64,000 nucleotides of DNA from Escherichia phage ST4. A program made the translations under genes and the position numbers. The DNA lies in the sequence record OM982646; one strand, given 5' to 3'. Shown in pieces: positions 29,183 through 31,390 of this stretch; within the stretch, counting starts at the first letter, position 1; each line of letters begins with the position of its first letter. The notes beneath the pieces are model-generated. The model saw only the letters and a list, made by a program, of their open reading frames with translations, made no database searches and was not told where the DNA came from.

Positions 29183-29521
29183 TCACTTATAAGCAGTTAA
29201 ATAGGAGGGAGCTTTAGTGATGATACGAATAGTTCTGAATGAGTTATCTTCCCATACTCTACTAGTTATTACTTCTACGGGTAAGAAGATATGGAAGTAA
29301 TCACCTTCAGGAGCAAGATAACAATCCCCTTCATTAAGGATTACTATCTCTGCATTACTGTTAGTAAGGAGTTTATGTCCTTGTGCAAAGTCTGCTAACT
29401 CTCCCGGTTCCATTATTAGTGTGGAATTTCCACAGGACAGGATGTGAATGATTGCTTTCTCTGGTTCAGAAGAGTAGTGCAGTAAGTTAGTACCACGCAT
29501 ACCTAAGAGTTTAACATTCAT
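29183..29521 (-). CDS. early paralog-family protein (member 1 of 6)
   Basis: Shares core LIMEPGELAD..G..LL.NS.A...ILN.G with 29561..29911. Confidence 0.5.
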   Translation of the reverse strand: MNVKLLGMRGTNLLHYSSEPEKAIIHILSCGNSTLIMEPGELADFAQGHKLLTNSNAEIVILNEGDCYLAPEGDYFHIFLPVEVITSRVWEDNSFRTIRIITKAPSYLTAYK

Positions 29522-29560
29522 GCTTTAGTACCTGTACCGGATAGGGTGATGTGTTTAGTT

Positions 29561-29911
29561 TCATAGAGATGCCTTTGGATAAATGGTGCGTACTCTTTTA
29601 AAATCTTTATTAGGTCTACCATCTATAGTAAGTCCAACGAACCCTTCTTCTATCCTTGGTTCAAAGAACAAGAATGCAGATTCACCAGCGGGTATCTTTA
29701 TGGATTCTCCTGGATTAAGGATGGTTAACTTAGCTGGGCTATTTAGAAGAAGAATGGAGCCACGGGTACTATCTGCTAACTCGCCAGGTAGCATGAGCAT
29801 ATGACAGTCTTGCGGCAATAACCACTCAATAGCTTTAGTGACATTCCCAGAGTAAAAAGAAACTTCATCCGTATATTGATGTAGGAATAGCACTCTACTC
29901 ATTGGGTACAC
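29561..29911 (-). CDS. early paralog-family protein (member 2 of 6)
   Basis: Core LMLPGELADSTRGSILLLNSPAKLTILNPG aligns with member 1. Confidence 0.5.
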   Translation of the reverse strand: MYPMSRVLFLHQYTDEVSFYSGNVTKAIEWLLPQDCHMLMLPGELADSTRGSILLLNSPAKLTILNPGESIKIPAGESAFLFFEPRIEEGFVGLTIDGRPNKDFKRVRTIYPKASL

Positions 29912-30216
29912 TCGTCGCTAGATAAATATGAGGAAGGATAGAGGGTAATGAGTCTACCTGTAAGAGTAGTAGCTACCATAGGTTCACTGGAGGAATAGAT
30001 ATATACAGTGACATTCTCTGGAACTTCAATGGAAGCATCTATCTTAATAAAGGTAATAGGTACACCTAACATTAAACAGGTTCCGATGAACTCATCTGCT
30101 TTTTCACATTGTTCATAGTACATGGTCATGGGTTTACTTATTCCCAACCAAGGTGATTTACCTACCCCCAGATTAAGGGGACAGGTACTACGACTACTTA
30201 AACCGTAGAAGTGCAT
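29899..30216 (-). CDS. early paralog-family protein (member 3 of 6, divergent)
   Basis: Weaker match of CEKADEFIGTCLMLGVPITFIKID to the family core; same size and tandem position. Confidence 0.4.
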   Translation of the reverse strand: MHFYGLSSRSTCPLNLGVGKSPWLGISKPMTMYYEQCEKADEFIGTCLMLGVPITFIKIDASIEVPENVTVYIYSSSEPMVATTLTGRLITLYPSSYLSSDECTQ

Positions 30217-30219
30217 GAC

Positions 30220-30534
30220 TTACTTCCTTACGTAATAGTAACGGTATTCATCATTCTCATAACGGGTATTCCACTGGTATTCATCGGACACCATCATGAA
30301 AGGTAGAGCGTCATCTGCACTACTAACGGGGTAGATGGAAGGAGGAATAATACATACAACCTTACGGTCATTACCTACTAAGAAGAGTTGGCCCCTTACT
30401 TCATGGTAGTCCTCTAAGGTAGGAACTAGTATTACACGTTGGGAACTACTATCCATGACTTCTTCTAAAGTGAAGTCATTTGTGTACATGGGCGCCCTTT
30501 CAGCAAAACTGGGGATGGTCATTATGAATTTCAT
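30220..30534 (-). CDS. early paralog-family protein (member 4 of 6)
   Basis: Core QRVILVPTLEDYHEVRGQLFLVGN aligns with members 5 and 6. Confidence 0.5.
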   Translation of the reverse strand: MKFIMTIPSFAERAPMYTNDFTLEEVMDSSSQRVILVPTLEDYHEVRGQLFLVGNDRKVVCIIPPSIYPVSSADDALPFMMVSDEYQWNTRYENDEYRYYYVRK

Positions 30535-30898
30535 GGTTGATTCTCCTTCCTTTAGGAATAGGTCTGAAGTAAATGGAAAGTGTTTTATTAAAGACGTTAT
30601 GGCTAGCTATCAATTCCCAACCGTCTATCTTATAGAAGCGTACACAGGGGAAGAACTCATTGAATCCATCATAGCGGGTAAGATCATATACCTTTGGTTC
30701 AGTAAGTATCTCAGTGTTAAGCTGAAGGTTGGATAAGAAAAGAGAACCAATGACCTCATGGGATTCTTCACAGTCGGGTAGGAATACTGATTGCCATGGG
30801 GCAATGAACTTACTTACTGCTTCTGGTTCCCCCAGGAGATAGGGTTCTTGTTTATGCAGTACACCGGTAATATCAATATCAAAACAGTAGATGCTCAT
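30500..30898 (-). CDS. early paralog-family protein (member 5 of 6)
   Basis: Core QSVFLPDCEESHEVIGSLFLSN; ATG at 30896-30898 with GGAGG RBS. Confidence 0.5.
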   Translation of the reverse strand: MSIYCFDIDITGVLHKQEPYLLGEPEAVSKFIAPWQSVFLPDCEESHEVIGSLFLSNLQLNTEILTEPKVYDLTRYDGFNEFFPCVRFYKIDGWELIASHNVFNKTLSIYFRPIPKGRRINHEIHNDHPQFC

Positions 30899-31006
30899 AA
30901 TCGCATACCTCCAGAAAAAGAAATGGGGCAGAGCCTCTCGACCCTACCCCTTACCGTTTTCAATCACGGGTCAGTTCATCCCCCTAGGTACTTATGTACC
31001 GTTAGA

Positions 31007-31019
31007 CCTACGGAGTAGG
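31007..31019 (-). promoter_or_regulatory. GGA-loop DNA hairpin, candidate vRNAP early promoter (5-bp stem)
   Basis: Plus-strand CCTAC-GGA-GTAGG inside a 200-bp non-coding gap upstream of 30500..30898; position not anchored to an ORF boundary, may be off by 1-2 bp. Confidence 0.5.
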
Positions 31020-31099
31020 AAAGGAGCCGGGGAACCCTGACTGTAGAAGTTATTAACTCTTTACGAGTACCGCCACTATCTACTAGGCGGTATGACTAA

Positions 31100-31390
31100 T
31101 CACATCATCACCGTCATCCGAACGCTATCTTTGCTTCGTTTGATGGAGACACTATGAGGTAATTTTGTAAAGAACACAAGAGATGGAATAGACTTTTCTA
31201 AAGAGTAAGTTTCTTGTGGTTCTAAGACTTTAACACCGGGACGGTTTTCTAACAGCATCATTCCAGATAACTCATGGAATGTATCTTCGTCATGGGTAAG
31301 GATTATATCACCAGCCATAAAGCCAGCTTTGGTGTGGTCTATCTCTGAGTATTTATCTTCAGAGTCTTGGACTCTCATATAGATTCTCAA
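31100..31390 (-). CDS. early paralog-family protein (member 6 of 6)
   Basis: Core DIILTHDEDTFHELSGMMLLEN..KVLEP aligns with members 4 and 5. Confidence 0.45.
   Translation of the reverse strand: MRIYMRVQDSEDKYSEIDHTKAGFMAGDIILTHDEDTFHELSGMMLLENRPGVKVLEPQETYSLEKSIPSLVFFTKLPHSVSIKRSKDSVRMTVMM

Follow-up and report, generated by a model that had tools for sequence, protein, structure and literature searches.

The window analysed here is a 64,000-nucleotide stretch of Escherichia phage ST4 (sequence record OM982646), and our subject is an array of six consecutive minus-strand genes at positions 29183-31390, which we call m6 to m1, from the gene that heads the module to the one that closes it. 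An initial annotation had described these open reading frames (ORFs) as a tandem array of diverged paralogs of a family it did not recognise, and had read them as very early genes at the first-injected end of the genome, under diversifying selection and with a hairpin promoter between m6 and the other five. The coordinates and the lengths of 96-132 aa that it gave are exact, and the peptides it quoted are present in the ORFs. We show by profile comparison that the shared core of these proteins goes beyond chance, and we identify between m6 and m5 a structured RNA with covarying pairs and a terminator-like hairpin at its end. The genome ends of related phages and the promoter motifs around the array point to a last-injected rather than a first-injected position and to transcription of m6 by a host-type polymerase.

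The head of the module, m6 (31100..31390, 96 aa), is the ortholog of gp70 of phages N4 and G7C (PHROG 7213) and the array member most widely conserved across phages; it starts with TTG, preceded by an AAGGAG ribosome-binding site 7 nt ahead. Beyond the structured RNA follow m5 (30500..30898, 132 aa; ortholog of N4/G7C gp71, PHROG 9160), m4 (30220..30534, 104 aa; ortholog of G7C gp71.1, PHROG 11661), which overlaps m5 by 35 nt, and m3 (29899..30216, 105 aa; ortholog of G7C gp71.2, PHROG 12099). The variable distal section consists of m2 (29561..29911, 116 aa) and the terminal gene m1 (29183..29521, 112 aa), both of PHROG 12606. The genes m5-m1 are tightly packed, with overlaps, and m1 and m2 have weak ribosome-binding sites. 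In the published genomes, N4 gp70 and gp71 (YP_950548, YP_950549) and G7C gp70, gp71, gp71.1 and gp71.2 correspond to m6 to m3 in the same order and position and are transcribed rightward, but both phages lack the two extra members m1 and m2. Every ORF matches its own PHROG with E-values of 2e-40 to 3e-65, PHROG 16338 is matched by both m4 and m6, and all six PHROGs (7213, 9160, 11661, 12099, 12606 and 16338) are annotated as of unknown function.

Pairwise BLASTP comparisons of the six proteins are significant for two pairs only, m1-m2 (2e-10) and m4-m5 (1e-4), with all other pairs at 0.05 or worse, and the case for common ancestry is carried by profiles. Equivalent arrays were taken from 17 related loci and their ORFs clustered into seven families, namely the five of the window together with x6 and x5, the latter found only in relatives. 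Comparison of the family alignments with hhalign linked m4 to x5 (P = 1e-9), m6 to x5 (3e-7), m3 to m1/2 (1e-5), m5 to m4 (2e-5), m6 to m4 (1e-4) and m6 to m1/2 (2e-4), which forms a connected network of all window families and x5, whereas the controls, x6 and neighbouring early-gene families, gave P values of at least 0.058. In addition, a single superfamily hidden Markov model (HMM) picked up all members of all the six families among 509 ORFs of related loci, with zero matches outside the arrays, and it recovered the m3 family even though none of the 42 member sequences of the HMM matched PHROG 12099. Alignments are collinear over the whole length, whether of the six proteins, 24 diverse relatives or 42 cluster representatives, and define a core of approximately hhhh-P/H-x-x-E/D-x-x-H/A-E/D-h-x-G-x-h-h-L-x-N/G ... 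h-x-h-h-x-P, in which the glycine is the sole invariant residue. The six genes thus belong to one superfamily, the N4 gp70/gp71 family. The paralogy of these families is absent from the PHROG and record annotations we examined.

This superfamily is restricted to a narrow group of phages. By tblastn, m6 was matched in 90 phage records, including N4-like phages of Achromobacter and Pseudomonas. A set of 5.8 billion proteins, searched three times by word index, yielded 712, 566 and 157 hits; among the matches listed, the contigs that could be judged are almost all N4-like and of ~70-75 kb, and none carries a Pfam domain. An exhaustive profile search of 1.84 billion representatives retrieved 43 clusters (50% identity), all of 54-132 aa and without fusions, and assignable to five PHROGs, each of unknown function. 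Enquatrovirinae and Rothmandenesvirinae carry the family, Zuri does so weakly, and the gp70 family was not detected in eight other Schitoviridae lineages. Two gp70-family proteins (P0128 and P0147) are deposited as Enterococcus faecium chromosomal, on a 2.76-Mb contig, a record that is probably a contamination or misassembly.

Searches of Pfam, of PDB sequences and of folds with the family gave no match, in agreement with the initial impression of an unrecognised family, and they revealed neither a nucleic-acid-binding or enzymatic signature nor, within these general libraries, a homolog among characterised inhibitors of defence, anti-CRISPRs included. AlphaFold2 models of m4 (mean predicted local distance difference test score, pLDDT, 65) and m2 (mean pLDDT 53, core 70-80) share a predicted beta-alpha-beta-alpha-beta core in which the conserved motif would form strand, helix and strand. 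Confidence is probably limited by the effective number of aligned sequences (Neff ~2.7), which deepening of the alignment barely raised. A cupin fold, suggested by the m1/m2 motif ILNPGESIKIPAGE, was rejected, as one of 42 members matches Cupin_2 (E = 0.029) and the models are alpha/beta. With isoelectric points of 4.6-6.1 the proteins are only mildly acidic, compared with strongly acidic DNA mimics such as Ocr and ArdA, and no membrane segment is apparent by eye. Overall, they form a lineage-restricted superfamily of mildly acidic, probably cytoplasmic proteins of ~100 aa.

The spacer of ~200 nt between m6 and m5 is more conserved than the genes that flank it, and it holds a predicted structured RNA of ~205 nt (30896..31102, minus strand), either a leader or a 3′ untranslated region (3′UTR), with 10 helices that include two hairpins, here called A and B, and a terminator. 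The window RNA fold has a z of -2.8, and the RNAalifold consensus of 12 sequences is a multi-branched structure of 52 pairs. Hairpin A (31068..31092), directly 3′ of the m6 stop codon, consists of TACCGCC, an 11-nt loop and GGCGGTA, and its stem and the loop motif AG.AGA..GGU are kept in N4, KP8, Axy12 and inbricus. At the other end, an intrinsic-terminator-like hairpin (30914..30950) has an 11-bp stem (30950-30925) with seven GC pairs, continues into ATTTCTTTTT with its U tract, and ends at the GGAGG ribosome-binding site of m5. This hairpin (helix 10) shows double or compensatory changes in 10 of its 11 pairs, with 99% of alignment cells paired, and an equivalent hairpin plus T run occupies the same place in N4 and KP8. 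A further helix (helix 3), with moderate support at 69% of cells paired, joins a conserved CUUCU to the Shine-Dalgarno sequence of m5 and would act as an anti-Shine-Dalgarno element.

In an alignment of 11 sequences only, fitted to the model, 92.4% of cells are paired across the whole structure, compared with 66.6% in shuffles and 40-48% with slid partners; double changes occur in 41 of the 52 pairs, and none of 500 shuffles reached the observed values. About 11% of cells are G-U, and an RNA of the array's sense strand is therefore favoured. A covariance model built from Gamaleyavirus sequences found full-length matches at the same position in Jgk1, the related locus L012, Moo19, KP8, N4 (34 bits), inbricus (55 bits) and Axy12 (48 bits), and no match in nine other Schitoviridae right ends. 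Outside the window, the RNA lies at 4862-5080 of L015, 3673-3934 of L018, 1837-2032 of L020 and 2549-2743 of L022 (both minus strand) and 19-270 of L016. When IMG/VR was scanned for the pattern of hairpin A, 48 stretches matched, but no more than 15 of them are genuine N4-like loci. In L012 the gene that follows the RNA is a member of the unrelated x6 family, and the conserved unit is therefore gp70 plus the RNA. An Rfam search of 28000-32000 gave two chance-level matches (E of 0.1 or more, below gathering scores), and ARAGORN found no tRNA in the window. Judged by these comparisons, the RNA is conserved in Enquatrovirinae and Rothmandenesvirinae and constitutes a candidate new RNA family. Its place behind a coding gene means that a 3′UTR-derived small RNA is another possibility. 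Two sequence elements were considered and set aside: CCUACUCC, as an antiterminator, can pair with the 5′ arm of the terminator in the window but, by eye, not in Jgk1 or L012, and the conserved spacer TTAATAAC, considered as a middle promoter motif that recurs, occurs in the window more often than expected but with no informative strand or intergenic pattern.

The slot beside the divergent region at gp69 is also used in a different way. In three other Schitoviridae, Shigella phage B2, Pollock and Rhizobium phage X2_28B, tRNA gene clusters take the place of the gp70 family there (L073 3089-4323, L074 3364-3693 and L070 1637-2780, respectively), so that structured RNA genes stand beside small ORFs there too, but the covariance model of our RNA does not match at these loci.

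The position of the array in the virion follows from the genome ends of related phages. Positions 28600-31600 matched 73 phage records by megablast, at 85-92% identity and nearly all of them Gamaleyavirus of Escherichia or Shigella, and the window is, to judge from these matches, the genome of a Gamaleyavirus (G7C-like, N4-like Schitoviridae) with its terminal repeat collapsed. In the records of G7C and Mimir124, one strand carries the tail fibre gene, gp67, the terminase gene gp68 and gp69, and the opposite strand carries gp70, gp71, gp71.1 and gp71.2, with more genes in Mimir124, followed by the terminal repeat. When this conserved order is set against the strands of the window, where gp69 (31562-32251) and the terminase gene (32223-33833; gp68 homolog) are on the plus strand, it follows that the window runs as the reverse complement of the usual map. 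The terminal repeats of G7C (1160 bp) and Mimir124 (~400 bp, PhageTerm) both end at the homolog of window 29123-29125; the ends of G7C were checked by Sanger run-off and the PhageTerm ends of Mimir124 agree (PMC11640937). The physical left terminus accordingly maps, by homology, to ~29123, where the terminal repeat would start after a spacer of ~60 bp past the m1 stop codon (29123..29182), and the gp1 homolog (28658-28981) starts the physical left end.

Since this terminus falls between the array and the early genes, the array is the last unique sequence before the right repeat in the virion. It lies between gp69/terminase and the right terminal repeat and is transcribed away from the late operon, and its N4 counterparts gp70-gp72 occupy 69055-70076 of 70153 bp. 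In N4 the left end enters first and promoters of the virion RNA polymerase (vRNAP) are confined to that end, while published maps place middle transcripts in the left half and late transcripts, directed leftward, in the right half (PMC4496689). These ends and positions place the array at the right, last-injected end, and its earlier assignment to the first-injected end is an artefact of reading across the collapsed repeat. Assemblies of this kind are a misannotation trap, in which right-end genes look as if they stood just upstream of early genes.

Ahead of m6 we found a sigma-70-like promoter (31471..31499, minus strand), with TTGAAG (31499-31494), a 17-nt spacer and TACACT (31476-31471). Its hexamers are kept across subfamilies of the Schitoviridae, as TTGCAG-17-TAGACT in N4, TTGAAG-17-TAGACT in KP8 and TTGCGC-17-TAGACT in Axy12 (Achromobacter) and inbricus (Pseudomonas), while the spacer sequence varies among phages. 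The -10 element overlaps a leftward -10, TAAAGT (plus strand 31468-31473), which faces gp69 and presumably serves the late gp69 operon; in the window this promoter reads ATGAAC-17-TAAAGT, and a -35 partner TTGTAA or TTGCAA, 17 bp off, is kept in N4, KP8, Axy12 and inbricus. Both promoters, back to back, span 31445-31499, and binding of RNA polymerase at the two would be mutually exclusive. From these motifs we infer that m6 is transcribed by host RNA polymerase. A core motif GTTAGACTTTAG is present in the overlapping promoters of N4, KP8, Axy12, inbricus and Zuri.

Array content varies among related phages. The proximal part (m6, the RNA, m5, m4 and m3) is kept in all Gamaleyaviruses compared, whereas the distal part is missing from G7C, is m12-m12 (m12 being the family of m1 and m2) in the window and Mimir124, and elsewhere is m12-x5, m12-x6-m12, x5-x6-m12 or others. 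Copy number differs from phage to phage, from the two members of N4 through the five motif-bearing genes of Zuri to the ~10 genes of KP8. The last array gene often ends in (A)PSYLTAYK whatever its family (m12 in the window, m3 in G7C, x5 at three loci, x6 in L012); in m1, the last nine residues, APSYLTAYK, are part of this fixed junction. The last ~29 nt of array coding sequence (29183-29211) belong to a conserved junction that is found as well in L001, L004, L006, L007 and L012, and G7C DNA aligns through window position 29211 though its last gene is of a different family. The shared ending marks a fixed recombination junction inside coding sequence. The family has grown by old tandem duplications, and its content turns over by gain and loss of cassettes upstream of that junction. 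Within the junction lies a sigma-70-like site (TTAACT-18-TACAAT, with TATAAT in G7C; 29171-29200, minus strand) that points into the right terminal repeat, toward the right-end copy of the P1 promoter and gp1. The metagenomic Gamaleyavirus L003 (4345-4656 region) has two short ORFs in place of an intact m3 ortholog (8032-8190 and 8221-8358 when oriented), and the gene may therefore be a pseudogene there.

Estimates of selection, which are gene-wide and made by NG86 only, gave ratios of nonsynonymous to synonymous substitution (dN/dS) of 0.11-0.29 for the array families among Gamaleyavirus orthologs, with m6 at 0.23; the value for gp69 is 0.024, and the early genes d1 and d4 range over 0.09-0.26. 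The six ORFs are therefore real coding genes, and they are under relaxed purifying selection. They evolve faster than their neighbour gp69, but the diversifying selection put forward for them is not borne out, positive selection not being seen in these gene-wide values.

Taking these observations together, we regard it as somewhat more probable than not that the array is a right-end accessory module of RNA-gated paralogs under a host-type promoter, whose products are accessory host-interaction or counter-defence binders. The module extends from the divergent promoter region by gp69/terminase to the fixed junction ~60 bp before the right terminal repeat. Host sigma-70 RNA polymerase would transcribe m6 from the promoter that overlaps the late gp69 promoter and, since this promoter lies on the last-entering DNA, not before genome entry has reached its final stretch. 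For m5-m1 to be expressed, polymerase would have to read through the terminator and the helix that masks the Shine-Dalgarno sequence would have to open, and the RNA would thus set the dosage or timing of these genes. Phage proteins that are small, present in some relatives only and without the look of enzymes usually act by binding partners from host or phage. By analogy, because conserved catalytic residues are lacking and presence is variable, binding of such partners is the most likely role of the array proteins. They may be stoichiometric binders with an accessory host-interaction or counter-defence function rather than enzymes or essential proteins, and the host-takeover or anti-defence role originally envisaged may still apply.

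Several points weigh against this interpretation. Our literature search found nothing relevant on the function of N4 gp70/gp71 or on transcriptomes of this region in N4-like phages, the mentions of gp70 elsewhere being different genes; polymerase and timing are read from motifs only. The m6 promoter matches the consensus at eight of 12 positions and falls under the scanner threshold. If the terminator before m5 is efficient, m5-m1 should be expressed at a very low level, which sits poorly with the purifying selection on them. Confidence in the AlphaFold2 models is low to moderate (pLDDT 53 and 65), and comparison with known structures gave no significant neighbour. Protein function is argued by analogy only, and, as gp70 is kept across two subfamilies beside packaging genes, a core phage function could be equally possible.

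A bolder form of the accessory-module view, which we put forward as tentative, is that gp70 and the ~205-nt RNA form an undescribed riboregulatory unit that gates a rapidly changing cassette array of gp70-derived counter-defence or host-modulating paralogs late in genome entry. In such a unit, gating might respond to gp70 itself or to a host cue.

The strongest competitor of the accessory-module reading, although in our judgement rather unlikely, is a phage-internal role at the genome end or in late development, such as packaging, terminus processing, right-end replication or regulation of the adjacent late operon or of the RNA element itself, with gp70 acting for instance as an RNA-binding autoregulator, instead of action on host targets. 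It would account for the persistence of gp70 beside gp69/terminase and the structured RNA across Enquatrovirinae and Rothmandenesvirinae, for the survival of the gp70-plus-RNA unit in L012 with an unrelated gene downstream, and for the overlap of the m6 promoter with the late gp69 promoter. However, the same packaging genes occur in the eight Schitoviridae lineages that yielded no family member, the number of paralogs ranges from two to ~10, dN/dS is ~10 times that of gp69, and the signature searches described above found no sign of nucleic-acid binding or enzymatic activity.

Much less probable is the original proposal, that the first-injected end carries, in the array, very early effectors of host takeover or anti-defence, and that a vRNAP hairpin promoter lies between m6 and m1-5. 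Early host-takeover modules do typically consist of small ORFans that are duplicated and evolve fast, and the array abuts the early region in the collapsed-repeat assembly, but the physical terminus lies between the two and it is the left end that enters first (PMC4496689). The promoter evidence points the same way. As N4-type vRNAP promoters we sought a stem of 5-7 bp with a 3-nt loop, a template heptamer GCGRAGC with -8G, -10G and -11R, and a coding-strand G at +1 that lies within WWWGGA at a distance of 11 nt from the centre of the loop. The heptamer has four copies in the window, three of them inside hairpins (29028, 28190 and 24461), and these three are canonical promoters, with a perfect 6-bp stem, a TCC loop and a GCTCCGC core followed by WWWGGA, read leftward from a template on the plus strand. 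The first, P1-like (29024-29038; ACATGC-TCC-GCATGT then TATGGA), lies upstream of the gp1 homolog, and the others are at 28186-28200 and 24457-24471; P1 and P2 of N4 show the same architecture. All three lie beyond the array on its downstream side, where the true early region begins to be marked out by them, whereas a scan for the heptamer and for hairpins found no canonical vRNAP promoter or GCGRAGC in 29183-31560. With m6 behind a conserved sigma-70-like promoter, the designation of these genes as very early does not hold.

The hairpin promoter that had been reported between m6 and m1-5 is probably hairpin B (31007..31019, minus strand; CCTAC-TCC-GTAGG). Its dimensions are right, with a 5-bp stem and a 3-nt loop, and the TCC of the coding strand is shared with the true promoters of this phage. 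Unlike N4 P1-P3, however, it has no GC-rich GCGRAGC heptamer, carries A in place of G at -8, and lies at the wrong genome end; the sequence behind it, TCTAACGG, puts A rather than G at +11. In sister phages its loop varies (CTA, TTCG, TACT), compensatory changes preserve the stem (CCTGA/TCAGG, CATCCC/GGGATG, CATTCCC/GGGAATG), and no such hairpin was found in N4 at the aligned position. In the LUZ7 system, a stem of at least 4 bp, a 3-nt loop and a G start 13-14 nt from the loop centre suffice for an early promoter (PMC9163698), and hairpin B has G residues at +13 and +14, which fits this looser rule. Hairpin B is also one of the helices of the covarying RNA, which has G-U pairs and ends in a terminator. 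All these points taken together, we do not regard it as a promoter. Finally, that m5-m1 are silent or decaying remnants with a merely compositional or motif-based similarity is hardly credible, since the strong terminator directly before m5, the weak m1/m2 ribosome-binding sites and the non-significant pairwise BLAST values that would suit it stand against purifying selection on every family (0.11-0.29), frames intact in dozens of phages, and array-specific profile and HMM evidence with clean controls.

Early host-takeover clusters are found at the first-entering end of other phage genomes, as in the class I genes of T7, the pre-early region of T5 and the host-takeover module in the terminal redundancy of SPO1. 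Like these, the array is a cluster close to a genome terminus of ORFans that are small and evolve fast, a kind of gene that is often dispensable; unlike them, it lies at the last-entering end, has no vRNAP promoter but a host-type promoter and a terminator leader, and is largely one paralogous family. Terminator-containing cis-regulatory leaders are likewise well known from riboswitches, attenuators and phage antitermination RNAs such as HK022 put. Our RNA resembles riboswitch and attenuator leaders in having a multi-helix domain followed by a terminator and a Shine-Dalgarno-occluding helix upstream of an operon, but it differs from all of these systems in that it has no Rfam match, no conserved antiterminator pairing was found in it, and it follows a coding gene.

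Although N4 is a classic model phage, its rightward gp70-72 genes lie outside the published map of early, middle and late transcription. Our findings describe this region as one copy-number-variable paralogous superfamily with a conserved host-type promoter and a covarying RNA that contains a terminator. The RNA gate, which was absent from the initial annotation, is the most interesting element of the locus and provides a candidate new RNA family for the annotation of Schitoviridae. If the tentative reading of gp70 and the RNA as a riboregulatory unit is true, that unit would be conserved across at least two subfamilies of the Schitoviridae.

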